Notes under the pieces: model-generated | Told to the model about the DNA's origin: nothing | Databases searched by the model: none | What the model saw: the letters and a program-made list of their open reading frames with translations, nothing else | Source of the DNA: a virus | Virus record (IMG/VR): IMGVR_UViG_3300029848_000008 | Reading direction: 5' to 3' (one strand) | Length of the DNA stretch: 59,375 nt | Shown here: in pieces, positions 2,741 to 51,402 of the stretch | Position numbering within the stretch: position 1 is the stretch's first letter | Layout: each line of letters begins with the position of its first letter | Made by a program: the position numbers and the translations under genes

Positions 2741-2823
2741 GTGTTCACCTCCTTAAAAAAAAGAGGGGCGGATGAATGACTCCGCCCCTGCATTGGGTGT
2801 CTGCACGGTGTGCAGACCTTACC

Positions 2824-3708: not shown

Positions 3709-3723
3709 TTCGTTTCTTCCTCC

Positions 3724-6800: not shown

Positions 6801-8675
6801 TTAGCTTCCGGCGTAGCTGGTGTAGTAGGTCGTCGAACCAACCTTGACCGAGTGCCGATGACTGGGCAGAGCCTTCAGGAAACCCTGCTGTTTCACCCAA
6901 CTCTGGGTAGCCACCACATTGTTTCCCATCGTGATCTTCAGGGCGTTGAGCGTATGGCACTTGATTATCTGACTCTGAAGCCAACTGACGTCTCCCTTCA
7001 GCGAGCTAATCTCATCCGCGATCAGCTTTCGCACCTGGGTGATCTGGGAGTTGATCCGGGTAATGCTGCTGTTGATGGTGACGATGTTCTCCTGAACCCC
7101 GTAAATATTGGTGGTGTTGACCTCGACATTCTTGCCGATGGCCGTGATGTTGTCCGCCTGCAGCTTGATCTCGCTCTCCAGCCCTTTCGTGCTGACGGTG
7201 ATTTCTGCACGAATGTTGTTAACTTCCTCTGTAATTTTGTTGCTGGTCAGCTTAATTTCGTTCGTATTGACAGCGATCTGTGATTCGTGCTTTTCCAGCA
7301 GGTTATGGTCTGCATCCTGAACGGTTTTAAGTGCCTGAATGTTGATGTTCCCGGTTTCGCCATCCAGATTGATGCCGACTGTGTTCAGGATCTTGTTGGT
7401 GTTGTTTACCGTCTCCCACAGGGCCCCGATGCTTACCTTGGGGTCTTCCGGTTTGTAATTGACCCAGCTTTTTACCTTGTCAAGTTCTTTTTCGTTCTTC
7501 TTCCCAGCGCCGCCGCCCCCGGAGGACGCCGCCTGCTTCACCTGCTCGGTTTCCTTCTGCTTGTCCCTGCGGTAACGCTCGGTCAGGCTCTGGGTAGGGT
7601 CGCCGAAGGTGTAGGTGGTATTACCCAGGTTGCTGAAGTCGTACTCGATCTTCGTGCAGGTCAGGTAGTCCTTGATGCCATGGGGCGCGGACCGCACCAG
7701 TACCTGGTCGCCAACGTAAATTTCCTGAATGTCCGGGTTGGCAAAGTGCAGGTCAACCGCCTTGATCTCGATGGTGACCGGCACGTTCGCATAGCTTTCC
7801 AAATAGCGCTTTCCGTTCTCCAGCAGAGTTTCTGGCTGGTTGACGCTGTCAAAGACATGGGTGCGCACAATCCGCCCATACTCGTTCACCAGCGCTTCAT
7901 CCTGAAGCTCCACATTGCCGTTGTTCGCGTCGGCAATGGTCAGGTTTTCGTCACCCAGAGGAATCAGCACTGTAAACAAATTCTCAGCAGAAATGCTTTC
8001 GGAAAAGTCCAGAAGGTTGGTCCCAAGCTCGATTTTCTGGGGAGCCCTGCTCTCGTAGTCCTGCAGGTAGTCGATGTACAGCCCGTCCTCGCCATGCCGG
8101 GCCCGAAGATATCCGCCCGCATAGGCGATCATGTAGCTGGAAATAAATTCCCAGCTGCTTTTCCACTCCCCGGTCATGGCGTTGATGGCGATCTGCTTGT
8201 AGTCGAAGCTATCATCGTCGCCGTCCTCCGTCTCATCCGACGTGCCGGTAATAATGATGTCGCGGTTTTCCGCCGTGATCTTTCCCATTTTGAATTGCTT
8301 GGCGGGTTCTACCATTTTATTGTGCCCTTCAATGATTTGGGCGAAAAGGTCATGGGTCTTTCCAGTAAATTTTTCCGAAGGTTGCACACTGTCGTTCAGG
8401 TAGGCCAGTACGCCCTCACAGTAAATCTGCTTAACATTATTAAAGGACCGGTCCATTGTCAGGATCCTGCCCCGGAAAATTTCCGTATCATCCAGTGTTA
8501 CGGTGATGATGGTTTTCAGCTTGGTCAGGGTGTTGTACTGGCTGTTGGATGGGGGAAGGCTGAACTGAAACGATCCCGCCTTTCCCATCTCCAGCGTCAG
8601 CCGCGGGTTCAGAATTACCCGCTTGTCATCCAGCGGAAACCAGAGCGATTCTCCGTCTGCGTATACGTAAAACAT
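6801..8675 (-). CDS. Tal-type tail tip/baseplate hub (phage minor structural protein, prophage-tail family N-terminus)
   Basis: N-terminus MFYVYADGESLWFPLDDKRVILNPRLTLEMGKAGSFQFSLP. Sits directly after Dit. The C-terminus is coiled-coil. Confidence 0.75.
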   Translation of the reverse strand: MFYVYADGESLWFPLDDKRVILNPRLTLEMGKAGSFQFSLPPSNSQYNTLTKLKTIITVTLDDTEIFRGRILTMDRSFNNVKQIYCEGVLAYLNDSVQPSEKFTGKTHDLFAQIIEGHNKMVEPAKQFKMGKITAENRDIIITGTSDETEDGDDDSFDYKQIAINAMTGEWKSSWEFISSYMIAYAGGYLRARHGEDGLYIDYLQDYESRAPQKIELGTNLLDFSESISAENLFTVLIPLGDENLTIADANNGNVELQDEALVNEYGRIVRTHVFDSVNQPETLLENGKRYLESYANVPVTIEIKAVDLHFANPDIQEIYVGDQVLVRSAPHGIKDYLTCTKIEYDFSNLGNTTYTFGDPTQSLTERYRRDKQKETEQVKQAASSGGGGAGKKNEKELDKVKSWVNYKPEDPKVSIGALWETVNNTNKILNTVGINLDGETGNINIQALKTVQDADHNLLEKHESQIAVNTNEIKLTSNKITEEVNNIRAEITVSTKGLESEIKLQADNITAIGKNVEVNTTNIYGVQENIVTINSSITRINSQITQVRKLIADEISSLKGDVSWLQSQIIKCHTLNALKITMGNNVVATQSWVKQQGFLKALPSHRHSVKVGSTTYYTSYAGS

Positions 8676-9379
8676 TACAGCTTGCCTCCAGCCAGATCAA
8701 TGCTGATGATTCCGCTGCCGGTAAAGGTCAGCTCGTTGATACCGTCTACAATCACGATGTCCTGATCCATGAAGGAGCCCTTGGGAAGCTCGTAGGTCAC
8801 GCCCTGGAAGGTTACGGTCATTCCCGTGGCCGACGCGGTAATGGTGATGTTGGTCGGCATGGTGGAGCCTACCACCCGCACCACCTTGGTGCCGTCCACC
8901 TGAATGTTTTTGTACACCCGGATGATGCCCGTCTTGAAGTTGAACGGGTCCCACAGCCACTGGTCCAGCGCCGCGCCGGTTTCCTTCTTGTAGGGGAATA
9001 CGTCGTAGTCGATGGTAATTTTGGAATACAGCTTATCGCTGTTCCACTGGTTCACCGTAAATCGGCCCTGATAGTAGTAGCCAGGGTCGTCCTCAAGCAC
9101 CGCCTTCAGGCTGCGGCCATGCAGGTAGTTGAGTATTTCGCTGTACAGCTCTTCCCACCGCATAAAGTCGTTGTCCGCAATAAATTCGAAGGATCCCGTC
9201 CGGTTGTTGTACAATGGCCTTCCGGCAATGAATTCCGTCAGGTCCAGCACACCGTCCCCGCCGGGCAGGTCAATGGTGCTGGCCTTTATGGTCGGCGGGT
9301 TGAACACCGGCCGCGTTGTGGGAATCAAATGCCAGTCGTCCCATGTGTTTTTGGTTCCGAAGGTAATAGAGTGGTACAT
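8675..9379 (-). CDS. Distal tail protein (Dit)
   Basis: N-terminus MYHSITFGTKNTWDDWHLIPTTRPVFNPP is typical of siphovirus tail-family proteins. Overlaps the Tal start. Confidence 0.8.
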   Translation of the reverse strand: MYHSITFGTKNTWDDWHLIPTTRPVFNPPTIKASTIDLPGGDGVLDLTEFIAGRPLYNNRTGSFEFIADNDFMRWEELYSEILNYLHGRSLKAVLEDDPGYYYQGRFTVNQWNSDKLYSKITIDYDVFPYKKETGAALDQWLWDPFNFKTGIIRVYKNIQVDGTKVVRVVGSTMPTNITITASATGMTVTFQGVTYELPKGSFMDQDIVIVDGINELTFTGSGIISIDLAGGKL

Positions 9380-9433
9380 TTCATTCCCCCTTTCATAAGA
9401 AATAAGAAAAAGCTCCCGCGGTGAAGCGGGAGC
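9371..9433. repeat. 63-nt junction repeat copy 1 (terminator + Dit RBS + ATGTACCAC)
   Basis: Matches 10416..10478 at 62 of 63 positions. Confidence 0.95.
9412..9433 (-). terminator. Rho-independent terminator immediately upstream of Dit
   Basis: Stem gctcccgc/gcgggagc with a 6-nt loop. On the minus strand it is followed by TTTTTCTTATTTC. Confidence 0.8.
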
Positions 9434-9453
9434 CTGTAGGTTATAGGAAAGAA

Positions 9454-9897
9454 TTACGGAGCATACTCAGCCGTAGGCAGAAGCTCAACCTGCGCCTGCC
9501 CCTGAACAATTTTCAGAAACATTCCTTCTTCCAGTAAAACGCTTAAGGAACGGCCAAAGCAGACGGCGTCGGAGGCCATACGATTAGAGTTTTCATACGC
9601 TGCTTTGTCGGCATATAGCCAATAGGCAAAATCCTCATCGTACTGAGCGTCAATGTCCTTATTGCAGGTGAACAGATACCGTCCGGGGGCGATGTCTTTT
9701 CCAACCAGATATTCTCCTTGATAGATTTCAGAAACGCTGACCGATGTCTTAAGCAGCTCGTCAATTTTGGCATCGACCTTGCTGCGCAGCTCCAGTAAGT
9801 CCGTAAGAGCCATGCTGTCTATGTCAATGCTTTCAGCGATAGCCCCCGGGATCCCTATAGTCGCCAAGACCAATAATACACATAAAAACCGTTTCAT
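9454..9897 (-). CDS. Secreted small protein, paralogue A
   Basis: Signal peptide MKRFLCVLLVLATIGIPGAIA. Shared core IYQGEYLVGKDIAPGRYLFTC. AGGAGG RBS 9 nt upstream. Confidence 0.75.
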   Translation of the reverse strand: MKRFLCVLLVLATIGIPGAIAESIDIDSMALTDLLELRSKVDAKIDELLKTSVSVSEIYQGEYLVGKDIAPGRYLFTCNKDIDAQYDEDFAYWLYADKAAYENSNRMASDAVCFGRSLSVLLEEGMFLKIVQGQAQVELLPTAEYAP

Positions 9898-9924
9898 CCC
9901 CATTAACCTCCTGTAAAGACAGAA

Positions 9925-10329
9925 TTACGGAGCCCAGTCAGCGGAAGCAGTCTTGATATAGCAGGAACCAGCATCGAGAGTGAGAATCATGCCCTCCGTC
10001 AAGTTCACATAAACGCTGGAACCGGTGACAAGATCATAGCTCTCCAGCCGTTCATCGGGATTATCGGCAGCGTATAGCCTTACATGCATAGCTGCCAATA
10101 TGCTCAGAAACTGATAGCAGGTTAGCTTGTACCGTCCAGGTTTGATGTCCGTTCCAACAACATATTTGCCTTCGTAAATCTTGCTGCTGTCGTCATCCAG
10201 AATTTCATCAATCTGCGCCCGCAGCTCTACCAGTTCAGCATCGGTCATAGTGGTCAGGTCAATTTCCGCGGCCAAAGCTGGGGTTACAGCCATAGTCAAC
10301 ACCAGTATGAGAAGAAGCAGACGTTTCAT
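9925..10329 (-). CDS. Secreted small protein, paralogue B
   Basis: Signal peptide MKRLLLLILVLTMAVTPALA. Shared core IYEGKYVVGTDIKPGRYKLTC. Confidence 0.75.
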   Translation of the reverse strand: MKRLLLLILVLTMAVTPALAAEIDLTTMTDAELVELRAQIDEILDDDSSKIYEGKYVVGTDIKPGRYKLTCYQFLSILAAMHVRLYAADNPDERLESYDLVTGSSVYVNLTEGMILTLDAGSCYIKTASADWAP

Positions 10330-10424
10330 GCAGTTTTCCTCCTAATTAAGTTCCCTTTGATTATACCATTTTGATTGTTTCCGTCAATGGTCAGTTTCCC
10401 CGTTCCCGCATTGCGGTGGTACAT
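10326..10424 (-). other. Chimeric 32-codon remnant ORF (Dit start fused to a tape-measure 3'-end-like sequence)
   Basis: ATGTACCAC (= Dit start) is followed by CGCAATGCGGGAACGGGGAAACTGA (compare the TMP end GCCGCGATGCGGGAACGGGGAAATTGA). It ends in an ATGA overlap with the paralogue B start. Confidence 0.6.
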
Positions 10425-10478
10425 TTCATTCCCCCTTTCATAAGAGATAAGAAAAAGCTCCCGCGGTGAAGCGGGAGC
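10416..10478. repeat. 63-nt junction repeat copy 2
   Basis: Matches 9371..9433 at 62 of 63 positions. Confidence 0.95.
10457..10478 (-). terminator. Rho-independent terminator (duplicate of 9412..9433)
   Basis: Same stem-loop and T-run. Confidence 0.8.
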
Positions 10479-10495
10479 TTATAAGTGAAAAGAAC

Positions 10496-10927
10496 TTATA
10501 GTGCCCAGTTGGGTGAAACGTTTTTAATAACTGCCGTTCCGTGGGAAATTTCCACGGCGACTCCTTCCGGAAGATTCAAGTATAATTCTTCACCGAGGCT
10601 AATATCGTACCTTTCGAAATCACCGGATGTTTCGTTTCCGGTGTATACCAGCATGGTCATGTACCGGTAGTCTTCAATTAACGAATTACAGGTAAACGTA
10701 TACTTACCGCTTGCAATATCTTTCCCGGTTACATATACACCGCTGTAAATTGTGTTACCTTCGTCCAGCAACTCATCAAGCTGCTGACGCTGCTCGTTTA
10801 ATAGTTCATCAATTTGCTGACGCAAAGAAATCAGCTCTTCAGTGCTCATACCACTCAGGTCGATTTCTGCCACAGACGGAGTTGCAGCCAAAAGAAGAAT
10901 TGTTACAAGTACCAAGAAACGTTTCAT
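10496..10927 (-). CDS. Secreted small protein, paralogue C
   Basis: Signal peptide MKRFLVLVTILLLAATPSVA. Shared core IYSGVYVTGKDIASGKYTFTC. The 28-nt leader and start are identical to paralogue A. Confidence 0.75.
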   Translation of the reverse strand: MKRFLVLVTILLLAATPSVAEIDLSGMSTEELISLRQQIDELLNEQRQQLDELLDEGNTIYSGVYVTGKDIASGKYTFTCNSLIEDYRYMTMLVYTGNETSGDFERYDISLGEELYLNLPEGVAVEISHGTAVIKNVSPNWAL

Positions 10928-10968
10928 CCCCATTAACCTCCTGTAAAGTTCCATTTTGATTCGTTTTG

Positions 10969-13900
10969 TCAATTTCCCCGTTCCCGCATCGCGGCGGTAA
11001 AGCCCAGCTGCTGGTCCATCTGGGCGCGGGTTTCGCCTACCAGCGTCCCGCTGTCCAGCACGATCTGCATGTGACTGACGGCCTCGCTCAGGTTGTTGAA
11101 CCGGCTTTCCAGCCGGGTAATGGCGTCTACCACGTTCTGGTTATCCGTTCCCCGGGACATGCGTCCGTCGTCCAGCCGCAGCTCGCCTACATTCTGCAGG
11201 GCGATGGAGCCGCCGAAGCTGCTCATGCTCGGGTTCATGGCAAACAAGCTGTTCAGGGCGGCTGCTCCGCTGGCAGCGCTGCTCAGGTCCACCACGGGCC
11301 GGATGGTCGGCGTGGTGTCGATGCTGCCGTCCAGCATGGCGCTGATTTTTCCAATGGCGTTGTTCAGGCCCGCCGCAGCGCCTTCTGCCATTCCGTCGGC
11401 GGCGTGTACCGCGCCGGAGGCATAGGCGGAAATGCCGTTGGCAAAGCCCTCGCTGAAGTATTGGCCAATCCCATACGTTACCCGGGAAGGAGAATGCTCG
11501 TCCAGCGCTCGCATGGCGGCGTTGGCGGCAAGCTGCGCCATATTGGAGGCCTGACGTTCCGCGTACCATGTGTACTCGGCAATGGCGTTGGCAAAGCCCA
11601 TCACTGCATTAAAGCCAGCCGTGTGGAAGCTCTGGTATTTGCCGCTCATAGCGTTGGCCGCTGTCACAGCCAGATTCCCAGCAATGATCTGCAGCCGAAC
11701 CTGCTGGTTGTTCATCCCCGTTGTCAGCGCGTCCATCAGCAGAATTCCGGCATTCCCGAAAGCCTGCTGGTGTTCTTCCGCGGTCAGCGCGGCGGTCATT
11801 CCGTCCAGAATACCGCTCAGCCGGGTCTGTACCGCTTTGCCGTCGCCGATCTCTTCGCCTACGCTGCTGAAGGATGTCAATGTGTCAATCAGCGCCTGCA
11901 GGTTGGTCTGCGCCGTTTCCGCCTCGTTGATCCCGGCTGCGAATTTGCCGAAGTTGTCGCCTACGGTGGCCATGTTGCCGGTCAGGGTCAGAAGCCCCTC
12001 CGTCTTGCTGCCGTTAAAGAATTCTCCAATGGAGTTCCACAATCCTCCTGTAGTGTTCAATCCGTCAGTAAATTTTTGTAACACGTCAAGTACGCCAATA
12101 GCGGATTCCGATTTCGTCGCGTCTACCGTTCCCGCGCCTTCTGCAAAAGCGGCCAGTGCGCCGCCAAGGGCTGAAATATCATCGCTGAATTCGCCAAGGT
12201 CCTTTGCTCCAGCCAGACCTTGCCATAATCCACCAGTATCCGGAATAGCCTGAGCCAGTTCAACCAATCCCTTGGCAGCAGCCGTCGAGTTTGTAACATC
12301 CGCTTTATTAACGGTAGTTGCGAAATCCTTCAGGTTGCTGGCATAGTCTTTTAGATTTTGAGCAAGGATTGGGAAACTCTCGCTAAAATCGCCAAGATCT
12401 TTTACCCCGACAAGTCCTTGCCATAATCCACCAGTATCCGGAATAGCCTGAGCTAATTCAGCCAGTCCCTTTGCAGCATTCGTAGAATTCGTAATGTCTG
12501 AATCTTTAATAGTCGAGGAAAAATTTGAAAGATGCTCAGCATAACTTTTCAGATTCTCAGCAAACGTTGGTAAGTCTTCGCTGAAAGTCCCCAGATCCTT
12601 CGTCCCGGCTAGTGCCTGCCATAAACCGCCGGTTCCGGAAAGCGAGTTGGTCAACTCAGCCAGTCCTGTGGCCGCCGCAATGGAATTCTCAACATCCGTC
12701 TGGCTGACCGCTGTGAATCCCTGAATCTTTTCAGCGTAGGAATTCAATCCTTCTGCCATGGCAGTAAGGTCATCTTTATACTTAGATATGGGGTCGCCGC
12801 CTGTGAACCAGCTCGTAAGCGCGGTTACCAGTTCGCCTTTGCAAATTTCCAGCAGCGCGCCCGTCAGGTTGGCTGCTCCGGTCTTGGCCGTTTCGTCAAT
12901 GCCGGACAATCCCTCAATAGCAGGCTGCACCGTGTCGATAAAGCCCTTGACGTCGTTCCCGATGGTGGTTAATACGCCGCCGTCGTCCAGCCCCAGCAGA
13001 CCGCTGATGAATTTTCCAATGCCTTCGCCGATCAGTCCCAGCACGTCTCCGCCGGAAACCAGAAAATCGTTCAAATCGGGCCATGCCTTTTGCAGTGCGC
13101 CTAACGCAACCATAATCGCGCCGAGACCTGCAATCACAATCGCCAGGTTCGCTACACCGATTCCGGCCTGCGCGGGGCTCAGTTTTCCAAGGATGCTCAT
13201 GGCTCCCGCCAGCGAGAGCAGAATGGCGGAAATGGATCCGGCAAAGCCGATCATGGACCGGGTATCCACTCCGCTGATGGATTCAAATACATCGGCAAAT
13301 AAATACAGGCTTCCCACCAGTGCGCCAAGCAGAATAATGCTTTTAACGTCCACTCGCATGCTGCCCAGCACTTTCATGCAGATAGTCAGGGCAGCCATCA
13401 TCGCTCCCAGTGCGACGCTTCCCTGTATCAGCTTGGATTTTTCCATCCCGCCCAGCCTTCCAAGGGTCGCGGCCAGCAGGGCGATGGCAATGGCAAAGGG
13501 CATCATGCCTTGGGCCTTCCCGGATTGCCGTTTGGCAATATTCAGGCATGCCGCCAGAGCAAACATAACCCCCGTCAGTACGCCGACGGCGGGCAGCATG
13601 GTGCTCATATCCATCCCCTCCAGCAGCTTCAGCGTCAGCACCAGAATGGCGGTAGCCGCGGCAAATCCGATAGCTCCCTTCATGTCGCCGGTCTGCTTTC
13701 CGGCAATTCGGAAGGCCAGCCCCAGTGCGGCCACTACTCCTGTCAGAACAATCACTCGTTCCAGCAATCCATTCGGGTTAATCCACTCTAATAGCTTCAG
13801 GGCGGCGGCCATAGCCAGAATACCAATTCCCAGCATCATCATGCTTTTGGCCCCGCCGCCAATATCTCCAATTCTGGTTTTGCTCAGCCCGCTCACGATT

Positions 13901-16900
13901 GCCGGAAGAAGAACCATGATAGCGCCCATTGCGGCAAGCGCTTCCACGGCAGGCCAAAGCTTGTCCGGATCAATCGTTGCTACCAAATATAACGCCCCGG
14001 CCACCATCAGCAGCGCCCCGGCGATCTGCAGTACCGTTTTCCCGATCGGCGTTTTGGATTCATTCAGATGGGCCAGGTCCTCCGCAAAGGCGCCTTTCAG
14101 GATGGTCATGATGTTGCCCAGCAGCTTTACAATCCCTGCCACCGCCAGCCCGGCGGGAATATACCAGTATTTGCCGATCAGGGCCCAGATGTCGATGCTG
14201 GCAAACCAGCTTTGGACCGATTCCAGAATTCCGTTAAGCTTATCCTTCGCTGTGTCCCATGCCCACTCCATGGCCTCCCCGACGGAGTCGAAGGAGGAAA
14301 GCTTCTCCTTGAATTTGCTGATAAAATCGCTGATGGGCTGGAAGGCCTTTCCCAGCCAGCCGCCCACGGTGCTGAATACCGTCTTGATCTTGGCCCAGAC
14401 GCTCTGCAGCTTTTCACCCAGCGCCTCAAAGCTGGGCAGCTTCAGATTCATTCCGGTGATGAATTCAATAAACCGGTCCTTCAGCTGCACAAGTCCCGCT
14501 TTGGCCTTCTGGATGAATTCCGACTGCCCGATGGCTTCAAAACCACTGCGGATCGCTTCCCAGCCCTTGGCAAATATCCCGCCGAGGGTTTCAAAGCTGG
14601 GCAGCTTGACGCTGATGCGTGACACAAAGTCCAGAAAGGCCGTCTTCAGCTTGCCAAGCCCAGCCTGTACATTCCGAAGAAATTCAGACCCGACAATGCG
14701 ACTCCACACCTGCTGAATTTTGCCCCATACCTTGGTGAAGATGTTTCCCAATCCCGTAAAGCGGGGCAGCTTGCCGGTTATGCCGGTCACAAATCCCACA
14801 AAGCTGTTCTTCAGCCCAGTCAGGATTTTCTTTACCTTCTGCACAAAGGCGGAATTGATGACCTTGTCATAAACGGTTTTGATCTTGCCCCAGAGCTTTT
14901 CAAAAGTCGCTCCCAGCTTTTCAAAGCTGGGCAGTTGAATTCCAAGCCCAGACAGAAATTCCGTCATCCGGCCCCAGAGGACCGCCGTTCGGTTCCTGAT
15001 CCCATGCAAAAATTCGGAGCTGCCGATGCCGGAAAACCAGTTCAGCAGCCCTTTCCAAACGCTGCTGATTCCGCTCTTCAGACCGTCCAGCAATTTGCCT
15101 CCGCTGCCGGCGGAAAAGCCGTTCATGATGCCATCCCAGAGCCCCGCAAACCATTTGCCGATTCCGGAAAGGTCCGGCAGCCTACTTTTCAGGCTGTTCA
15201 GCCCGGCTGTGATCTGCTGCCACGCCCACTGGATGCCTGCCTTTAAGGACCCCATTTCCCGAACCTTGGCCGTAAAATCGCTGATGAAGTCTGCCAGCGG
15301 CTTCACCCAGCCGCTCAGGCGCTGCACTACACTGCTCAGCACATTGCCAAGCCCGGTAAAGAAATCGGTAAAGGCTTTGCTAGAGGTCAGTGCTTCCGCC
15401 GCTCGGCTGATGCCGCTGCCGATGGTGGCCAGCACATCCAACATGCGCCCACCGCCTGGTGCCAGCACACCGAGAGCTTGTCCAACAGCTTTTCCGATGT
15501 TTTTGAAAATTTCAATCCCGGTCTTTACCACCGAAAAAACGCCGCCAAATACCTCCCGAATTTTCCCGGCAGTTTCCTCGCTGACCTTGAACCGCTCCGT
15601 CAGTTCCCGCACCTTTACGGTAATTTCTTTCAATCGCTCACCTGTCAGTGGCGGAAAAATATCGCTGAAGGCTTCCTTTACCGAGTGCACAATGTCCATC
15701 AAGCTGTGGAAAGTGTTCTTTATTGCCTCGATCAAGTTCTCCCGGCCCGATAGCTCCCCGAAGGCCTTAGCATATTCCGCCACATCAATGGTGCCGTCCT
15801 TCAGCTTCTGCTGCAGCTCCCTGGCATGGTCGATCTGGGCCTGGGTAATGCCCATCTCTTCCTTTTCTTCCTTGGAAAGGCCGTCATATTTGCTTACCAG
15901 CTTGTCAACCGATGCGGCCAGCAAGTCGTTGGTAATCCATCCATTTTGAAAAGTCTTCTCCAGCGAACCGGCCTGCTCCACCATTTCGTCGATGGAAATG
16001 CCCTGCTCCCGGGCTGTTTCCATCATGGCGGTTTTGTACATCTCACCGTCGTCGATGCCTTCCTTCAGCCACTTTTTCCAGCCGGAGGCCATGCCCTCGT
16101 ACAGCACGCTGTTCCGCGCCTGGGATGAAGTCTCGATCAGGGCGCTCAGCTCGTTGCCCACATCGGTAAACAGCGCCTTCGCCTCGTTGAAGTCGCCGAT
16201 CAGAAGCTCCCATGTCTGGGCCCAGCCGGAGCCCAGCGCTTCCTTCAGCGTGTCTATCAGCATGCTGAAGGTCTTGATGTCCTGCGCAGCGGCATAGGCC
16301 TTTTTGCCAATGTCCGTGGTTTCGTCGGCATACTTGGCCAGCGTGCTGGTCAGTACGTCCGTGGTCATCCACTGGTACGCCAGCGAATCATTGAAGTTGC
16401 TCGTTGCATCAAAGGCCTGATAGGTCTTTCCCGCCGCGTTTGTCGTCACCGTGGCGTACTGGTCGCCATACTTCACGATGGTGCCCAGCTCAATGGCCGT
16501 GTCCAGCAGCTGCTGCTTGAATTCCTGGGTGGCCATGTTGGCATTTTCAATGCTTTTCCAGTCGATCAGCTTGACGTACCCTGCAGACAGAGCCTGACTG
16601 AAATTATACATTGCCCTGCTAGCTTCTTCAGCCGTAGCACCGGAAACTGCAGCCACGTTACTAACACCCTTGATGGCCAGCACAGCCTTGTCCAGCTTGA
16701 CGCCTGCATTGGTGAATTTGCCAATGTTATTCGTCATGTTGGAGAAGGAATAGATCGTCTGGTCAGAGTATTTGTTCAGCTCCTCCAGATACCTGTTCAC
16801 CGTTTCCAGGCTTTCGCCCGTGCCTGCCATAATGGTCTGCACTGAGCCCATCTTCAGTTCATACTCGGCAAAGCCGTCTTTGGAGGACTGAAAAGCCAGT

Positions 16901-17199
16901 GCATTCACCATTTTCCGCCCGGTGTCGATGGCCGCATCCGTCAGCCGCTGAAAAACCCGCGCCGCGGCTACATCCAGCGCCGAAAATTTAAGAGACACGG
17001 TTTCTATGGCACTGCTCAAGCCGTTCAGCTTCACTTTCCGGGAAGCCTGCTCAACCTCTTCCAGCCCCTTGGCGGCATCGTCCAGCTTCAGGGCTTTCTT
17101 AAGCTTTTCAAGCGTGCCCAGGCTGGTCTGCACATTGTCCTCAAATTTTTGATTGTCAAAGCGCATCTCTACTACGCGCTCGTCGATTGTCCTGCTCAC
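10969..17199 (-). CDS. Tail tape measure protein (2076 aa)
   Basis: N-terminal TP901-type core (...AMYNFSQALSAGYVKLIDWKSIENANMATQEF...). About 12 hydrophobic helices in the centre. Two internal repeat families. Confidence 0.9.
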   Translation of the reverse strand: MSRTIDERVVEMRFDNQKFEDNVQTSLGTLEKLKKALKLDDAAKGLEEVEQASRKVKLNGLSSAIETVSLKFSALDVAAARVFQRLTDAAIDTGRKMVNALAFQSSKDGFAEYELKMGSVQTIMAGTGESLETVNRYLEELNKYSDQTIYSFSNMTNNIGKFTNAGVKLDKAVLAIKGVSNVAAVSGATAEEASRAMYNFSQALSAGYVKLIDWKSIENANMATQEFKQQLLDTAIELGTIVKYGDQYATVTTNAAGKTYQAFDATSNFNDSLAYQWMTTDVLTSTLAKYADETTDIGKKAYAAAQDIKTFSMLIDTLKEALGSGWAQTWELLIGDFNEAKALFTDVGNELSALIETSSQARNSVLYEGMASGWKKWLKEGIDDGEMYKTAMMETAREQGISIDEMVEQAGSLEKTFQNGWITNDLLAASVDKLVSKYDGLSKEEKEEMGITQAQIDHARELQQKLKDGTIDVAEYAKAFGELSGRENLIEAIKNTFHSLMDIVHSVKEAFSDIFPPLTGERLKEITVKVRELTERFKVSEETAGKIREVFGGVFSVVKTGIEIFKNIGKAVGQALGVLAPGGGRMLDVLATIGSGISRAAEALTSSKAFTDFFTGLGNVLSSVVQRLSGWVKPLADFISDFTAKVREMGSLKAGIQWAWQQITAGLNSLKSRLPDLSGIGKWFAGLWDGIMNGFSAGSGGKLLDGLKSGISSVWKGLLNWFSGIGSSEFLHGIRNRTAVLWGRMTEFLSGLGIQLPSFEKLGATFEKLWGKIKTVYDKVINSAFVQKVKKILTGLKNSFVGFVTGITGKLPRFTGLGNIFTKVWGKIQQVWSRIVGSEFLRNVQAGLGKLKTAFLDFVSRISVKLPSFETLGGIFAKGWEAIRSGFEAIGQSEFIQKAKAGLVQLKDRFIEFITGMNLKLPSFEALGEKLQSVWAKIKTVFSTVGGWLGKAFQPISDFISKFKEKLSSFDSVGEAMEWAWDTAKDKLNGILESVQSWFASIDIWALIGKYWYIPAGLAVAGIVKLLGNIMTILKGAFAEDLAHLNESKTPIGKTVLQIAGALLMVAGALYLVATIDPDKLWPAVEALAAMGAIMVLLPAIVSGLSKTRIGDIGGGAKSMMMLGIGILAMAAALKLLEWINPNGLLERVIVLTGVVAALGLAFRIAGKQTGDMKGAIGFAAATAILVLTLKLLEGMDMSTMLPAVGVLTGVMFALAACLNIAKRQSGKAQGMMPFAIAIALLAATLGRLGGMEKSKLIQGSVALGAMMAALTICMKVLGSMRVDVKSIILLGALVGSLYLFADVFESISGVDTRSMIGFAGSISAILLSLAGAMSILGKLSPAQAGIGVANLAIVIAGLGAIMVALGALQKAWPDLNDFLVSGGDVLGLIGEGIGKFISGLLGLDDGGVLTTIGNDVKGFIDTVQPAIEGLSGIDETAKTGAANLTGALLEICKGELVTALTSWFTGGDPISKYKDDLTAMAEGLNSYAEKIQGFTAVSQTDVENSIAAATGLAELTNSLSGTGGLWQALAGTKDLGTFSEDLPTFAENLKSYAEHLSNFSSTIKDSDITNSTNAAKGLAELAQAIPDTGGLWQGLVGVKDLGDFSESFPILAQNLKDYASNLKDFATTVNKADVTNSTAAAKGLVELAQAIPDTGGLWQGLAGAKDLGEFSDDISALGGALAAFAEGAGTVDATKSESAIGVLDVLQKFTDGLNTTGGLWNSIGEFFNGSKTEGLLTLTGNMATVGDNFGKFAAGINEAETAQTNLQALIDTLTSFSSVGEEIGDGKAVQTRLSGILDGMTAALTAEEHQQAFGNAGILLMDALTTGMNNQQVRLQIIAGNLAVTAANAMSGKYQSFHTAGFNAVMGFANAIAEYTWYAERQASNMAQLAANAAMRALDEHSPSRVTYGIGQYFSEGFANGISAYASGAVHAADGMAEGAAAGLNNAIGKISAMLDGSIDTTPTIRPVVDLSSAASGAAALNSLFAMNPSMSSFGGSIALQNVGELRLDDGRMSRGTDNQNVVDAITRLESRFNNLSEAVSHMQIVLDSGTLVGETRAQMDQQLGFTAAMRERGN
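12030..12700. repeat. ~198-nt (66-aa) tandem repeats inside the tape measure gene (~3.5 copies)
   Basis: ccataatccaccagtatccggaatagcctgagc recurs 198 nt apart (12222 and 12420). Protein unit: GGLWQGL.G.KDLG.FS...AAKGL.ELAQAIPDT. Confidence 0.85.
14260..15010. repeat. ~165-nt (55-aa) tandem repeats inside the tape measure gene (~4.5 copies)
   Basis: LPSFE/LPRFT-encoding caaagctgggcag recurs near 14427, 14591, 14757 and 14921. Confidence 0.85.
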
Positions 17200-17573
17200 A
17201 GGCTGGTCACCTCCTTCCAGGCGTTTTGTGCGATTTTATCAAATACCGGCTGAATGGCAGGATTGATATAATCCCGTCCTTCCACCCAACCGCCGGTTCC
17301 GGTGCCGTGGCCATACTGCAGGATGATGGCAATTGGCACGCCGTCGTTTATGTTGGAGTTGAAAAAGGAGATCGATGTTGATCCCCTTTGATGCTCTATC
17401 CTGTAGTACCACGAATTGGCCGTGGTTCCAGAGTCCGCAGGAGTAGCAGACGCAAGGGCGGCTACTCCCTCCCGGCCAAATCTGTCCAGATCCGACAGCC
17501 GGATCTTTTCCTTTATCCGCTCCAGAAAGCGGTTCAGTTTGGAGAAGTCGCCCTTTTGTCTGAATGTTATCAT
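17196..17573 (-). CDS. HK97-gp10-like head-tail/tail-completion family protein
   Basis: ATPADSGTTANSWYYRIE...VPIAIILQYGHGTGTGGWVEGRDYINPAIQP fits the gp10-family pattern. The position directly before the TMP is atypical. Confidence 0.5.
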   Translation of the reverse strand: MITFRQKGDFSKLNRFLERIKEKIRLSDLDRFGREGVAALASATPADSGTTANSWYYRIEHQRGSTSISFFNSNINDGVPIAIILQYGHGTGTGGWVEGRDYINPAIQPVFDKIAQNAWKEVTSL

Positions 17574-17585
17574 GCCCGCCTCTTT

Positions 17586-17870
17586 CTAGCCGTTGGCACT
17601 TTCGTCGTCCCCGGGCTTTTCCTCTTCAGCAGGCGGCTTCGGTTCCGGAGTCGGTTTGGCTGCGTCAATCAGCGGAGAAAGGACGATGTTCCACACAGCA
17701 CTCAGCCCCGCCGCGATTGTTGACAAAAGCAGACTCAGCCACAACTTATCGCTCCGGTCTGGAGCGAACAAGTCTACACCCTTCATCTGCATCAAAAGAC
17801 AGGTGACCGCGGCCTGCACAAACGTCTTGGCGGACCGCTCCAGCACATCCTTCCAGTCGATGTTTTTCAT
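17586..17870 (-). CDS. Holin (r1t-like family)
   Basis: N-terminus DWKDVLERSAKTFVQAAVTCLL, then two hydrophobic helices and a charged Pro/Glu-rich tail. Confidence 0.55.
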   Translation of the reverse strand: MKNIDWKDVLERSAKTFVQAAVTCLLMQMKGVDLFAPDRSDKLWLSLLLSTIAAGLSAVWNIVLSPLIDAAKPTPEPKPPAEEEKPGDDESANG

Positions 17871-17880
17871 ATTACCCTCC

Positions 17881-18159
17881 TCAGGTATGTTTCACCCGGT
17901 CATGCTCCTCGGCGCGCTTGGCATTGTTCCAGCGGCTCAGGCTTCCCACCAGGTATCCTGTAATACGGCGCAGCCGGTTGAAGGGAATCGCTTCATCCGT
18001 GTCGTAGTGGATGCTCACATACTCCCCGTCAATTTCCAGCTCCATTTTGAGCAGATGGTGGCCGTACTTTTCTCTTCCTCTGGCCACATAGGCCAGCAGT
18101 TCTTCCTCCGGTATCTCCTCCGATACCTGAATCTGGATCCCGTCAATGGTTCTCTGCAT
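17881..18159 (-). CDS. Small protein ending in an NrdD-type glycyl-radical loop
   Basis: C-terminus FNRLRRITGYLVGSLSRWNNAKRAEEHDRVKH resembles the class III RNR C-terminal R-I-T/C-G-Y-L...W-N-x-G/A-K-x-x-E...R-V-K-H signature. No Zn-ribbon cysteines. GAGG RBS before the ATG at 18159. Confidence 0.4.
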   Translation of the reverse strand: MQRTIDGIQIQVSEEIPEEELLAYVARGREKYGHHLLKMELEIDGEYVSIHYDTDEAIPFNRLRRITGYLVGSLSRWNNAKRAEEHDRVKHT

Positions 18160-18169
18160 GGTTTTCGCC

Positions 18170-18511
18170 TCAGCGTTCAATCAGAAAATTGGTCAGCTCG
18201 TCCTGGGCCTTTCGCAGCTTGTCTACGCTGTTGCCGTTGATTTCGTGGCTTAGCAGCGCCAGCATGCCCCGGCACACCATGTGCTGTCCGCTTTCGATGT
18301 CGTTCAGGCGGTTGTTGTCCTCCTGCAGTTTGTCCTCGCAGCTTTTCAGCCGGGACTGGGTCTTGTCACGCTGTTGGTCCACTGGTTTTATCCATCCTTG
18401 TATGGTTTGTAGGGTCTTTCCCACCAGGTTGATAACCTCGAAGATTACAAGCACCACAATCAGCGCCGTCAGAAGGTCCGCACCCGTCAGCCCGGTTATT
18501 TGTCCAAGCAT
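18170..18511 (-). CDS. Membrane-anchored coiled-coil protein (lysis accessory / holin-like)
   Basis: GGAGGG RBS. N-terminal TM LLTALIVVLVIFEVINLV followed by a coiled coil. Sits between the endolysin and the holin. Confidence 0.45.
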   Translation of the reverse strand: MLGQITGLTGADLLTALIVVLVIFEVINLVGKTLQTIQGWIKPVDQQRDKTQSRLKSCEDKLQEDNNRLNDIESGQHMVCRGMLALLSHEINGNSVDKLRKAQDELTNFLIER

Positions 18512-18525
18512 GGCTCTTCCCTCCA

Positions 18526-19296
18526 TTACTGTGCCGCTTCGGTGTACTGCTTGCTGATCCAGCGGTATTTCCCCTGGAAGTAAATGCGGTAAAAGCCGTT
18601 CTTCTCGCCCTCTACCCGGTACTGCTCGCCGGGATAGGCGTAGAAGCCCTTCTTGTGTACGGCGTTCAGGGAGGCTCCCTCCCGTACCCGTACCGGCCCG
18701 CCGTTGGGCGATACCACCCGGATCGTCTGGGCGGTCTCCGCGGAAGGGGTCGGCTCCTCGCTGGAGGAAGGCTCGTCCAGAATGTCCTGGGCGTCCTGTC
18801 CCAGCTCCACGCCGCTATTTATGGTGCCATAGTCCACCTCCTGAAGGTACAGCACATGGGTCCAGCCGTTTTTCAGCGTGGAGCCCGCTACCTTTCCCTT
18901 CTTCTTGGAGGAATGGACCACCTCATAGCTGTGCCGGGTGCCCAGCAGCCCCTTCTCAGTAAAGCCCTTGTCGCCTACATAAATGCCGATGTGGTTAAAG
19001 TCGCCCAGCCCATCCCCGCGGTATTTGGCGGGCAGCTGGTCGCTTTCTTCCTTCCAGATCAGCAGAAATGCCCCGGGTACCAGCTTTCCGGCGGCCTTAG
19101 CATTGTCCAGAGTACCCAGCCATGCGCAGTGATTGCGCACCATATCATTGGTACCGGAGGTGCGAATGCTGCCTCCGCACAGGTTGATGCATTTTTCTAC
19201 AAAGCCCTTGCAGTCTTCCTCACTGTAGGGAATCGTGGAGCCGCTGGCCCGTATAATGGCCATGTCGGCTACGGTTCTGGCCGTTGGTCTTGTCAT
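18526..19296 (-). CDS. Endolysin: NlpC/P60 peptidase + C-terminal SH3b
   Basis: Start at MTRPTARTV. Cys/His motifs CKGFVEKC, FNHIGIYVGD, VVHSS. SH3b-like VRVREGASLNAV...YRVEGEKNGFYRIYFQGKYRWI. Confidence 0.8.
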   Translation of the reverse strand: MTRPTARTVADMAIIRASGSTIPYSEEDCKGFVEKCINLCGGSIRTSGTNDMVRNHCAWLGTLDNAKAAGKLVPGAFLLIWKEESDQLPAKYRGDGLGDFNHIGIYVGDKGFTEKGLLGTRHSYEVVHSSKKKGKVAGSTLKNGWTHVLYLQEVDYGTINSGVELGQDAQDILDEPSSSEEPTPSAETAQTIRVVSPNGGPVRVREGASLNAVHKKGFYAYPGEQYRVEGEKNGFYRIYFQGKYRWISKQYTEAAQ

Positions 19297-19301
19297 ACTT
19301 T

Positions 19302-19844
19302 TTACCCCCTTGTCCTCAGTCGTTGCCTCCTGGCAGCGTTCAGCGCCCGGTTTTCCTGCAGAATGGCCCGCTGGCTTTTTTTGCGCGCAGGCTGGTTCTT
19401 CAGGTTGCATACCCGGATAAGTGCAAGCAGACGGTTCAGGTGCCATTTTTCGCATTCAAAGGGAATACTCAGTGTCACCATCCAGTAGTAAATCAGCTCT
19501 GCCGTTGTTTTCTCGCCATTTCGGTTCCCGTGCTGCTCCGCCGAAAAGGTGGTGGCTGTCATCGGCCTGCTGATGTACTGTTCAATTTCCGCCATGTTGC
19601 CTGTCGTCAGCCGGCTGTAGGTTTCAGGGCTTACATTCTGGGTGATAGTCATGCAGCGCACGTAGTCCAGCATTTCATCGCCGGTCTTCGGCTTCTGGTC
19701 CAGAAAGGGCTTTTGCCATTTTGATTCCCATTTGGCGAGGGAAACCAGGGAGTGCTCCAACATCAGTTCCCGCTCGCCTGTCTGAACGAATTCCTGCTTG
19801 CGCTCGTCCCACATTTCTGTCGGCGCGATTTTCAGTCGAAGCAT
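19302..19844 (-). CDS. Gp15-family tail protein (second tail assembly chaperone position)
   Basis: LEHSLVSLAKWESKWQKPFL resembles the bacteriophage Gp15 family found between the major tail protein and the TMP. Confidence 0.5.
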   Translation of the reverse strand: MLRLKIAPTEMWDERKQEFVQTGERELMLEHSLVSLAKWESKWQKPFLDQKPKTGDEMLDYVRCMTITQNVSPETYSRLTTGNMAEIEQYISRPMTATTFSAEQHGNRNGEKTTAELIYYWMVTLSIPFECEKWHLNRLLALIRVCNLKNQPARKKSQRAILQENRALNAARRQRLRTRG

Positions 19845-20260: not shown

Positions 20261-20342
20261 AAGGTTTCTCCTTTCATCTTCTCGAACAGAAAAAGGGGCG
20301 CCGCGCGTTCAAACGGCGCCCCGGTTAATGTTGGGTGAAATA

Positions 20343-21017
20343 TCAGTTCGCCAGCAGAGTTACCAGCTCACTGGGAAGAGGCAGCTTCGGGTCGCTGGCG
20401 GCGGGGGTTCCCTCCGCACCGGCGTCCGTACCGTACAGCAGGGCTTCCAACTTCGCCAGCTTTTCCGGGGTCAGCTTGTTGGAGTTGATCGCAATGTGGG
20501 CGGTGGGCTTGTGACCGGCCACGTCCACAGGCGTGCAGCTCAGCTCCCAACTAAGGGTGATGGCCTCGGGGCTGTCGTTGATGGTGGAGTAGCTGCGCTC
20601 GCTGGGCTTGGCCCGGCAGCCGTATACCAGATGGATGATATAGCCATGGTCGAAGCCATCGGTGTCATTGCCGATTTTGGTCTGGTAGCTAAGTCCAAAC
20701 ATCTGGCGGTTCTGCTGGCCGAAGGTTACACCAGGTTCCAGCTCGGCGGAGCCATCACAGGCCTCAAACTCCTCCGGATAGGTGTACGCCTCCACCGTCA
20801 GACCGAATTTCTCCAGGCTCATCATATTGGCATATTCCTGATCGTCCGCATACAGGGTGGTGATTTCGCCGCCGGAGGGGCTCTGGTTGATGGCGGTCAG
20901 TCCGTTCCACGCCACGCCCTTCTGGTAGGCATTTTCGGAGTAGGGGTACAGTACGCCCTTCTCTACACCGTTTTCATACAGCTTTTCGCCGGTTCCATCC
21001 CACTGCAGTTTACTCAT
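20343..21017 (-). CDS. Major tail (tube) protein
   Basis: N-terminus QWDGTGEKLYENGVEKGVLYP is typical of major tail proteins; position is consistent. Confidence 0.7.
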   Translation of the reverse strand: MSKLQWDGTGEKLYENGVEKGVLYPYSENAYQKGVAWNGLTAINQSPSGGEITTLYADDQEYANMMSLEKFGLTVEAYTYPEEFEACDGSAELEPGVTFGQQNRQMFGLSYQTKIGNDTDGFDHGYIIHLVYGCRAKPSERSYSTINDSPEAITLSWELSCTPVDVAGHKPTAHIAINSNKLTPEKLAKLEALLYGTDAGAEGTPAASDPKLPLPSELVTLLAN

Positions 21018-32495: not shown

Positions 32496-32496
32496 C

Positions 32497-33057
32497 TCAG
32501 GCAACCTCCCTTCGTTTCATGGCCCGGATAATCTCGTCCGCCCGGACGATCCGCTCCATAATGGCGGAAATATCATTTGGATCGGGCTTGTCGTAAAGCA
32601 CCTCGTCGTTCTGATAGATGCGCAGCTCCATGGGAATATCCACGGGCTTGCGACGGTATTCCAGGCAGAAGAGCGCGGCGTAGATGCGCAGCTGCTCCAT
32701 GTGCGCCGGGACTGTTCCAGTCTTCAGATCATGGATGCGGAGAAAATCATTGCGAAAGCTGATGGCGTCCGCGGTGCCGAAGCAGTTTTCGGAATAATAT
32801 AAAACCTGCTCCGGCGTCATCTTGAATCCGATGGCGTCATTGACGTACATGTTCAGTGTCTTGGCGCTTTTCTGCAGCTTGATGCCGTGGCGGATAGCCT
32901 GTGCAGCGAAGGCATGAAGCTCCGTGCCCCGCTGCACCGCCAGAAAGTTCTGATAGCTTTCCGCCAGCTTGTCGTCTGTGTAGTTGATCCAGTGGTATTT
33001 GCTGGCTCCCAGAAAGGCGTGCTGCCCTTCAAGGTCCAAATGTCTGTTGAAGTCCAT
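32497..33057 (-). CDS. PD-(D/E)XK nuclease superfamily protein
   Basis: GTADAISFRNDFLRIHDLKTG (D...D-L-K). GAGGAGGAGG RBS. Confidence 0.6.
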   Translation of the reverse strand: MDFNRHLDLEGQHAFLGASKYHWINYTDDKLAESYQNFLAVQRGTELHAFAAQAIRHGIKLQKSAKTLNMYVNDAIGFKMTPEQVLYYSENCFGTADAISFRNDFLRIHDLKTGTVPAHMEQLRIYAALFCLEYRRKPVDIPMELRIYQNDEVLYDKPDPNDISAIMERIVRADEIIRAMKRREVA

Positions 33058-50466: not shown

Positions 50467-51402
50467 TCAGATTTTGTCATAAATCACGCCGTCTACGTTG
50501 AAGTCCAGCGCTGTGACCTCCTCCATTTCGCCGTAGGCATTGCGGCGCAGCACCTTTGTCATGCCGAAATCTACCACGCTGTCGCCATCGTGGGCAGGGT
50601 TGTTGGGGTCGTAGATCCAGCCGACCACTGCGCCTGCGGGGGTGTGGTCGTAGCCCAGGCTCTCATATACATCGTTCAGGAACAGGTGACCCTGGGCCTT
50701 CAGTCGATTGTTCGCCCAGGTCTGCTGGGACCGCAGAAAGAAGTCGTTCATATCCTGATCCTCATCCCAGGCTCGGCTGTCCTCCCGGCGAAACAGACGT
50801 CCGTATTCGTTGCGGAAGTCCTGCTCACTGACCGTCACAGTTTCCTTCACCTTTTTCGCATGGCCCTTCTCATCCACCACGGTCTTTTCCACCTTTTCGG
50901 TGCGGATGCCGTAGCGCAGCTCCTTGTCCACGTCTGCACCATAGCGCTCAGTCACCCGGCCGCGGTATTCCCGGAAGCCCTTGTCCACCGCCGCGTAGGC
51001 CGCCGTCAGGGCCACCGCCCGCCTCTGGAGGAGCGTGTTGCTGCCCACCATGCCTGCAATGGACAGTCCACCCAGCAACGCGGCGGGAGCGTACAGGCGG
51101 CATACCTTCAGTCCGGCCTGCAGGTAGAGGATCACCTTATCATGAGCCGCGTCCTTCTTGGTATAATCCTTGCCATGGACGTTCTTGCCCTCCTCCTGGC
51201 AGCGGCGCAGCGTAGCCAGATCGTTTCGGGTGCTTTCCAGGGTGTCATTCAGGCGCAGAGTAGCCCGGCAGGCAAGCACCGTGCTGCCAACGGCCCCGGC
51301 GATGCCACCTGCCATCAGGATCTGCGGAGCATGCTTCTTCAGGGGAGCAAAGAGTTTCGTTATCGCCATTCCGGCGTTTTTCGTCATCTTGGAAAGCTTC
51401 AT
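50467..51402 (-). CDS. 2-TM membrane protein, paralogue 1 of 3
   Basis: Shared motifs LLQRRAVALTAAYAAVDKGFREYRGRVTERYG and FLNDVYESLGYDHTPAGAVVGW. Confidence 0.65.
   Translation of the reverse strand: MKLSKMTKNAGMAITKLFAPLKKHAPQILMAGGIAGAVGSTVLACRATLRLNDTLESTRNDLATLRRCQEEGKNVHGKDYTKKDAAHDKVILYLQAGLKVCRLYAPAALLGGLSIAGMVGSNTLLQRRAVALTAAYAAVDKGFREYRGRVTERYGADVDKELRYGIRTEKVEKTVVDEKGHAKKVKETVTVSEQDFRNEYGRLFRREDSRAWDEDQDMNDFFLRSQQTWANNRLKAQGHLFLNDVYESLGYDHTPAGAVVGWIYDPNNPAHDGDSVVDFGMTKVLRRNAYGEMEEVTALDFNVDGVIYDKI

Follow-up and report, generated by a model that had tools for sequence, protein, structure and literature searches.

Small exported proteins encoded beside phage tail genes, such as Llp of T5 and Cor of phi80 and N15, block receptors or injection. 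Ltp, of the Streptococcus thermophilus phage TP-J34, lies in the lysogeny module (PMC3952083). Beside the tape measure gene of phage HK97 lies a moron, gene 15, whose product acts in superinfection exclusion (Juhala et al. 2000; Cumby et al. 2012; PMC3594210). Here we analysed a viral sequence of 59,375 nt, IMG/VR record IMGVR_UViG_3300029848_000008 (the whole stretch is referred to as the window), in which three paralogous genes for small secreted proteins, A, B and C, lie between the genes for the tape measure protein (TMP) and the distal tail protein (Dit). Overall, we think it probable that the locus holds two moron units stacked in the tail operon of a temperate siphophage, formed and expressed in the manner set out below. 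Unit 1 is A with the terminator T1, and unit 2 is a sigma-70-type promoter with B, C and the terminator T2. The finding is clear but conceptually familiar: morons have been stacked at a hot-spot by illegitimate recombination.

The gene order on the minus strand is TMP, A, T1, a 32-codon chimeric open reading frame (ORF), B, C, T2, Dit and Tal. TMP (10969..17199) is a 2076-aa ORF for which gene calls of identical loci match PF20155 (TMP_3). Dit (8675..9379) was assigned from phrog_33 (3.2e-16) and its place between the TMP and Tal genes, and Tal (6801..8675) matches PF06605. As the preliminary description of this sequence had claimed, three small secreted-protein genes separate TMP from Dit, in an insert of 1589 nt. 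Paralogue A (10496..10927; 143 aa) has a signal peptide, a helix and a beta domain, and its ribosome-binding site (RBS), AGGAGG, lies 9 nt before the ATG at 10927. Paralogue B (9925..10329; 134 aa) and paralogue C (9454..9897; 147 aa), which starts 27 nt past the B stop, are probably co-transcribed.

In a blastn search, none of 50,697 GenBank phage records matched the region; the region is common in human-gut metagenome assemblies. A Dit-anchored search of IMG/VR and GTDB genomes yielded 103 related loci, 100 of which had a recognizable TMP end. The view that TMP and Dit are normally adjacent is borne out by 76 of these 100, in which the TMP stop is no more than 60 nt from the Dit start. Inserts occupy the gap in the other 24: one to three members of the secreted family in 13, a truncated paralogue of the Dit N terminus in 6 and other cargo in 5. 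The genome matches of the Dit anchor were mostly Oscillospiraceae and Ruminococcus metagenome-assembled genomes, and the host is probably a member of the Oscillospiraceae or Ruminococcaceae.

Within the window's own clade we found at least six junction states: TMP-A-Dit (L143, L145); TMP-B-C-Dit (L018); TMP-B'-57aa-Dit (L001, L004-7, L017); TMP-B''-Dit (L147); TMP-A-junction-B'-Dit (L137); and TMP-A-junction-B-C-Dit (the window, L019, L121/L141, L138-140, L142, L144 and L146). L139 is identical to the window (100%) over the region compared. Relatives with zero, one or two cassettes had been expected at this hot-spot, and all were found, as the 76 empty loci and as A-only, B-C-only and stacked ones. 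Searches for the A-only parent in IMG/VR and in JGI metagenomes returned one stacked locus each, and an exact-protein look-up later found that parent. The locus documents a case of moron accretion: public data contain the two parental arrangements together with the recombinant and one further derivative.

The TMP-Dit gap also holds a different kind of ORF in L021/L022, L046, L047, L068, L079/L109 and L094. This ORF, of 137-185 aa, lies directly upstream of the full Dit gene, between the TMP stop and about position 4001, and is a copy of the Dit N-terminal domain (MYHSITFG..NTWDDWHLIP...). Such copies represent either recurrent partial duplication of the junction or a real two-Dit arrangement.

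A repeat finder showed that positions 9371-9449 and 10416-10494 of the window are 91% identical over 79 nt, and a duplication of this length in 59 kb is far beyond chance. The first 63 nt of the block comprise the terminator, the Dit RBS and ATGTACCAC, with a hairpin followed by a T run and the Dit RBS in each copy. The upstream copy (10416..10478, minus strand) carries an 'ATCTC' variant, and the downstream copy (9371..9433, minus strand), which leads into the genuine Dit gene, carries 'ATTTC'; this C versus T is their one difference, so that 62 of 63 positions are identical as first counted. Behind the upstream copy lies a recombination scar (10390..10421, minus strand), in which Dit codons 1-3 are fused to the last codons of a B-type TMP gene. 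The near-copy of the TMP end reported there was recovered as a match between 10390-10421 and 10968-10999 at 29 of 32 positions. The chimeric ORF (10326..10424, minus strand; MYHRNAGTGKL...), which is present in the ORF list and was called as a gene in L137, is preceded by the duplicated Dit RBS. It reads the first three Dit codons, crosses the TMP remnant in another frame and stops where an ATGA overlaps the B start, as described previously; it is probably a by-product of the join. The leaders of A and C, already noted as alike, match at 33 of 35 positions (9884-9918 and 10914-10948), including an identical run of 29 nt that spans the RBS and ATGAAACG. We found a fourth repeat, beyond those in the preliminary description, at the 3' ends of B (9918..9947, minus strand, with the conserved GCTCCGTAATTCT) and C (9447-9476).

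The junction reads ATGTACC(A/G)CCGCAATG, with ATGTACC(A/G)C joined to CGCAATG. In most assemblies it is ATGTACCAC that is joined to CGCAATG; in L019 and L142 it is ATGTACCGC. Dit begins ATGTACCACTCT and TMP ends ...TTTACCGCCGCAATGCGG, which places the crossover inside TACC(A/G)C. The joined sequences share 4-7 nt of microhomology, with TACC as the common core, and the junction occurs in L008, L009, L010, L019, L121, L137-L142, L144 and L146 with an A/G polymorphism inside the microhomology. An assembly artefact, in which an A phage and a B-C phage were concatenated at the terminator repeat, had to be considered here, given that the repeat is 63-79 nt long, that both variants co-circulate in human-gut metagenomes and that such repeats can mislead assemblers. 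The join, however, lies outside the repeat, at a point where the Dit start and the TMP end share just TACC, far below any assembler k-mer. Some 15 independent assemblies contain the same junction; they stem from different projects, were made with different assemblers (SPAdes NODE, MEGAHIT k141/k119, Logan and scaffolds) and carry single-nucleotide polymorphisms of their own, and the contigs that bear the junction include ones of 956 kb and 203 kb. We regard the chance of an artefact as negligible.

The parents can be recognized from the flanks. In A-only phages the A stop is followed by a terminator with an 'ATCTC' spacer and then by Dit, exactly as in the window's upstream copy, and B-C genomes have 'ATTTC' or 'ATCCTTT' in its place. 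As 'ATCTC' is found both in the upstream copy and in L143/L145, the single mismatch within the repeat marks the parental A-only lineage. In B-type genomes the TMP stop lies directly before the B leader; the TMP remnant in the window ('GGAAACTGACCATTGACGG') is of the B type and the real TMP end ('GGAAATTGACAAAACG') is of the A type. The insertion amounts to 1045 nt relative to an A-only phage and 578 nt relative to L018, and in TMP and Dit the window shares 98-100% identity with A-only phages and 88-95% with L018.

This comparison shows illegitimate recombination between a TMP-A-T-Dit phage and a TMP-B-C-T-Dit phage. The crossover fell between Dit codons 1-3 and the codons about 10 before the TMP stop, duplicating the junction and leaving behind a 25-nt TMP remnant and the 32-codon chimeric ORF. 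On the right side, an ordinary homologous exchange in the conserved terminator, RBS and Dit region would have completed the join or reshuffled it later. Mosaicism is also evident in L019 and L142, in which A-B-C is 98-99.8% identical and Dit just 92.5%. C would have been added behind B separately through the 13-nt gene ends GCTCCGTAATTCT; the repeats bounding C, together with L137, in which B' is followed by a C-type 3' flank and no C, indicate that C was a separate gain or loss. The case is a direct illustration of Hendrix's model, by which illegitimate recombination, with selection after it, generates phage mosaicism.

The preliminary description had proposed that two alternative cassettes were stacked by recombination rather than by an old tandem duplication, and the discovery of both parental arrangements in public assemblies upholds this. 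It had also taken the near-identity of the flanks as a sign that the event was recent. The stacking stands, but the near-identity does not by itself show a recent event: the terminator and RBS block varies by only 1-3 nt across all close lineages. An old in-situ triplication, with the flanks kept alike by gene conversion or functional constraint, draws on the same fact, since a block constrained across the clade gives no date by its identity alone, and it would account for three homologous and adjacent proteins. Against it, A-only and B-C-only phages exist on backbones that are 94-100% identical, the repeat mismatch matches the A-only lineage, and at the scar the start of Dit is fused to the end of TMP, the signature of a crossover between junctions. 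C is closer to proteins at other phage sites (72% and 54% identity) than to A and B (33-38%), and the GC content of A is 43% compared with 48-49% for B and C.

Substitution rates lead away from triplication as well. Synonymous divergence (dS) between B and B' is 0.74, compared with 0.28 for Dit of the same two genomes, and between B and B'' it exceeds 3, compared with 0.31 for Dit. The ratio of non-synonymous to synonymous divergence (dN/dS) is about 0.2 for B alleles and 0.02-0.05 for Dit; values for the TMP C terminus, where the repeat region misaligns, are unreliable and were not used. The cargo alleles must therefore be much older than the backbone that carries them, which argues against duplication in situ. 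To judge from these values, the cargo genes are functional and encode proteins that change more rapidly than Dit; A, B and C are presumably under purifying but relaxed selection. By alignment, the three proteins belong to separate subfamilies, and the pattern points to cassette exchange and not to local duplication. We consider a tandem triplication very unlikely and already largely refuted.

The two stacked units share much with HK97 gene 15, which is likewise extra tail-operon DNA next to TMP, absent from close relatives and deviant in GC content, with its own terminator and a small envelope-targeted product; the promoter of gene 15 has a predicted counterpart in front of B. The GC content of the insert is 46.1%, compared with 55.5 +/- 3.2%, and no other stretch of 1589 nt in the sequence is as low; at third codon positions it is 44-53% in the cargo and 67-77% in the flanking genes. 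A candidate sigma-70-type promoter for B and C (10360..10387, minus strand; TTGACG, 16 nt, TGgTATAAT) matches 11 of 12 consensus positions, has an extended -10 and is the best sigma-70 match in 20 kb. It is kept wherever B occurs (L001, L004, L018 and L019) and in single-cassette relatives directly follows the TMP stop, where consensus or near-consensus promoters are also found in L021, L023, L024 and L040. The leader of A is homologous to that of B up to the -10 and then switches to the leader that it has in common with C. T1 (10455..10480, minus strand), which closes the A unit, and T2 (9410..9435, minus strand), which ends some 30 nt ahead of the Dit start, both combine a 10-pair stem (7 G-C pairs) with a T run; their energies are -19.0 and about -19 kcal/mol, respectively. 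The published moron definition (PMC3594210) comprises extra DNA between normally adjacent genes, deviant composition, an own promoter and terminator and expression from the repressed prophage. We found the first two and, at the level of sequence patterns, the terminators; the promoter before B and C is a candidate, and the insert appears from its sequence to match the definition. An Rfam scan of 9000..11300 returned just a sub-threshold suhB/mmgR match over T2 (9396..9472, minus strand; 24.2 bits against a gathering threshold of 41), which is most likely due to chance and driven by the terminator hairpin.

Every cargo-bearing relative scanned has a hairpin terminator some 30 nt ahead of Dit, with hairpin sequences that are unrelated between lineages. 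The strong terminators noted in front of Dit were recovered as predictions, but the one directly before it is not a result of the stacking, which added only T1. Similarly, the suggestion of an unseen promoter led to the candidate described above, which serves B and C, not Dit. In a lysogen, host RNA polymerase would start before B, make B and C and stop at T2, leaving the tail genes silent; during lytic growth, the late transcript would have to cross T1, T2 and other strong terminators. Two such terminators lie elsewhere on the minus strand, one at 20322..20295 (10-pair stem, 9 G-C), after the major tail protein gene (20343..21017), and another at 2789..2764, downstream on the coding strand.

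It could be argued that A, B and C are instead late-expressed accessories of infection, released at lysis to coat debris or cells, or modifying the wall for lysis or tail assembly. T5 Llp, an exported receptor-blocking protein made during lytic infection, would be a precedent. A has no convincing promoter and lies directly in the late transcript, the duplicated Dit RBS and the ATGA coupling would drive translation of B from late mRNA, and the tail-operon location recurs in many lineages. However, a near-consensus host-type promoter and a terminator bracket the cargo in at least six diverged lineages, which fits only expression independent of the late operon; 76% of relatives carry no insert, so the proteins are not needed for tail assembly; and the family also occurs at a site before the terminase genes. 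We judge this role to be distinctly improbable and return to expression from the prophage.

How late transcription might pass the terminators is suggested by a gene at the head of the late operon (29802..32504, minus strand). Its 900-aa product matches phrog_4291 ('RNA-dependent RNA polymerase'; E=0) over residues 6-897 and contains an ADFDGD motif (SGADFDGDTV in the translation), with sigma-70 region-4 and helix-turn-helix segments at both ends. The match to PF05183 was below threshold (20.1 bits against 23.8), and a sequence search against the PDB gave no match. The protein appears to belong with the two-barrel single-subunit RNA polymerases of the YonO type. In SPbeta, the late genes form one operon that is transcribed by YonO, an enzyme without the flap domain used in hairpin-dependent termination (PMC5467207). 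The window protein resembles SPbeta YonO in the ADFDGD motif, the full-length phrog_4291 match and the position at the head of the late operon, and differs in its extra sigma-region-4 and helix-turn-helix segments. By analogy, it may let late transcription pass the terminators, such that T1 and T2 would stop host polymerase in the lysogen and not phage polymerase in lytic growth. The preliminary description held that the distal tail genes need read-through, antitermination or another promoter, and for the first of these the polymerase is a concrete candidate. Host-type cassettes within a late operon that is probably transcribed by a YonO-like polymerase could explain why insertion sites of this kind are tolerated. 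A 1017-aa counterpart of the polymerase is present in L011 and L013.

Proteins A, B and C are 33-41% identical in pairwise comparisons. Each begins with MKR and 14-17 hydrophobic residues, and the signal peptide, read from the sequence, ends in SVA (before E), ALA (before A) or AIA (before E) with no lipobox cysteine. The invariant residues form the patterns I-D..M....L..LR...D and IY.G.Y..G.DI..G.Y..TC, and the signal peptide and both motifs that had been described for each paralogue are in agreement with these. AlphaFold models of A and B, following up a proposal for structure prediction, share two helices, the first at the N terminus, and a beta domain of eight strands with a confidence score (pLDDT) of about 90. 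Scans of A, B and C with Pfam, PHROGs, NCBIfam and PADLOC found nothing above any cut-off. A Foldseek search of the A and B models against the PDB had no match at E <1e-3 and found just generic cupin/jelly-roll sandwiches. A search of BFVD was weak (best E 2.7e-4), with mostly unnamed or uncharacterized phage proteins and named matches that include phage lipoproteins and a restriction endonuclease.

The family itself is large. The exact A, B and C proteins are found on 73, 191 and 34 public contigs, respectively, and a family profile retrieved 2,506 clusters (50% identity) at E <=1e-3 among 1.84 billion representatives. Most of these clusters are 130-160 aa long with the same layout as A, B and C. 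Some members are large extracellular proteins in which the beta domain is repeated 2-10 times in tandem, and in one case the domain lies at the C terminus of a surface protein with BspA-type leucine-rich repeats (LRR). A Pfam scan of 20 multi-domain relatives identified no informative fusion partner except this BspA-type LRR protein, and no Pfam model matched the family domain in A, B, C or any of the 20. The family is an uncharacterized one of secreted proteins, and it turns over rapidly in prophages of Oscillospiraceae-type gut bacteria.

One domain model does touch the family. NF053833, the Rv1352/Rv1906c domain, resembles A, B and C in its Sec signal peptide and in the motif that opens a small beta domain, GxYxVGxDIxPGxY; Rv1352 is a mycobacterial Sec-secreted culture-filtrate protein. 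A multi-repeat relative, P0037, is a strong member of NF053833 (6.7e-157). Where the cut-off is 25 bits, B reaches 19.0 and C 17.3, with only model positions 4-25 of 76 matched, and A has no match. Homology over the full domain was rejected, as hhalign aligns just 24 columns; the actinobacterial domain has conserved cysteine pairs, but neither an IDLxxM helix at the N terminus nor a WAP at the C terminus.

Family members have a second preferred site. In L011-L016, L126-L132 and L136 the TMP-Dit junction is empty, and a member (at about 3501-3926 or 6001-6441) immediately precedes the small and large terminase genes; P0019, a relative of C, also sits in front of terminase genes. In other loci, a membrane protein of 57-71 aa follows the family member (L001, 6443-6616; L004, 6449-6622; L024, 3757-3933; L048, 3721-3936). 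It has the motif YxxSPID..PG..DD, occurs in three diverged lineages and is not present in the window, where C holds that place; it may be a functional partner of the secreted protein. An assignment of the 57-aa form to DUF1232 was set aside as sub-threshold (17 bits against 23).

We propose that A, B and C are exported by the Sec pathway and cleaved by signal peptidase I to give proteins of about 120 aa, each a helix and a small beta-sandwich. At the surface of the lysogen, their most likely role would be superinfection exclusion or receptor masking against related phages, and a stack of three diverged versions would give protection against a broader set of them. We hold with low confidence that they protect the lysogen in this way. 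HK97 gp15 mediates prophage-expressed, tail-dependent exclusion, which for A, B and C is conjecture. It differs from them in being an inner-membrane protein of the YebO family in a Gram-negative host, with no relation in sequence or fold, and its gene is a single one between the tail chaperone and TMP, whereas A, B and C are stacked between TMP and Dit. Llp, Cor and Ltp are, like A, B and C, small exported phage proteins that diversify, some of them linked to tail-tip genes. They are lipoproteins, in contrast to A, B and C with their AxA-type cleavage sites, and Pfam, PHROG, PADLOC and PDB and BFVD fold searches found no homology between the two groups.

The main alternative to phage exclusion is a role in host ecology: as surface or secreted modules that are adhesin-like or bind matrix or glycans, the proteins would aid the fitness of the lysogen in the gut. 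The tandem beta domains of large extracellular proteins, the BspA-type LRR protein, the motif in common with the mycobacterial secreted domain and the empty PADLOC scan are all in keeping with such a role. The rapid turnover of alleles, the stacking of diverged copies and the placement in the tail module would be more typical of conflict between phages. We consider the ecological role possible, though on balance unlikely. It is also conceivable, but doubtful, that the family is a widespread and previously unrecognized class of secreted superinfection-exclusion proteins in phages of Gram-positive gut bacteria that hit the entry apparatus (TMP, Dit, Tal) of competitors. The TMP/Dit placement would then link each allele to a compatible tail tip, stacking would widen the range, and the promoter-terminator slot would rely on a terminator-blind polymerase. 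Where prophages of the gut microbiome exclude other phages or remodel the cell surface, this family is a reasonable candidate.

Several observations weigh against the overall reading of two stacked, prophage-expressed moron units. The window's Dit is 98-99% identical to that of A-only phages and 93.8% identical to that of L018, such that a simple single crossover with an L018-like donor was rejected; we have to assume either a further exchange or another donor of B-C. A has a perfect -35 (TTGACA) but a -10 that matches at only 2/6 positions. Unit 1 thereby falls short of the full moron definition, and with this poor -10 A would be expressed weakly or from the late transcript only. More generally, the promoter and terminators are predictions from consensus matches, and the insensitivity of YonO-type polymerases to terminators is deduced from the loss of a domain. 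With regard to function, A, B and C have no PADLOC, Pfam or significant PDB fold match and weak BFVD matches, and the presence of family members before the terminase genes of related phages means that a functional link to TMP or Dit is not required.

The phage is temperate, as indicated by a tyrosine integrase gene (58104..59351, plus strand; PF00589). In L152 (9433-17248), the integrase is flanked by host genes for a GGGtGRT protein, a LexA-like repressor and ABC transporters; in L153/L155 (9559 onward), the integrase is followed by the far end of the late operon. The host-flanked and circular arrangements together indicate that integrated and circular or excised forms are both present in metagenomes.

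Other parts of the window showed minor features. On the minus strand at 17196..19455 are genes for a 309-aa protein with a weakly amidase-like C terminus (phrog_1794, 7e-7) and a 125-aa 'tail completion/Neck1' protein (phrog_5), an unusual order given that tail chaperone genes usually lie between the major tail gene and TMP. The C-terminal third of TMP (11900..12700, minus strand) contains at least three tandem units of about 60 aa (…TGGLWQ(A/G)L(A/V)G(T/V/A)KDLG(T/D/E)FSE…), and TMP lengths in close relatives are 2010, 2076, 2078 and 2096 aa. Finally, three paralogous DUF6353 genes (50467..51402, 52241..52999 and 53610..54353, minus strand; E 4e-44 to 8e-76) alternate with small ORFs in the early region, forming a second set of stacked paralogues in this phage.

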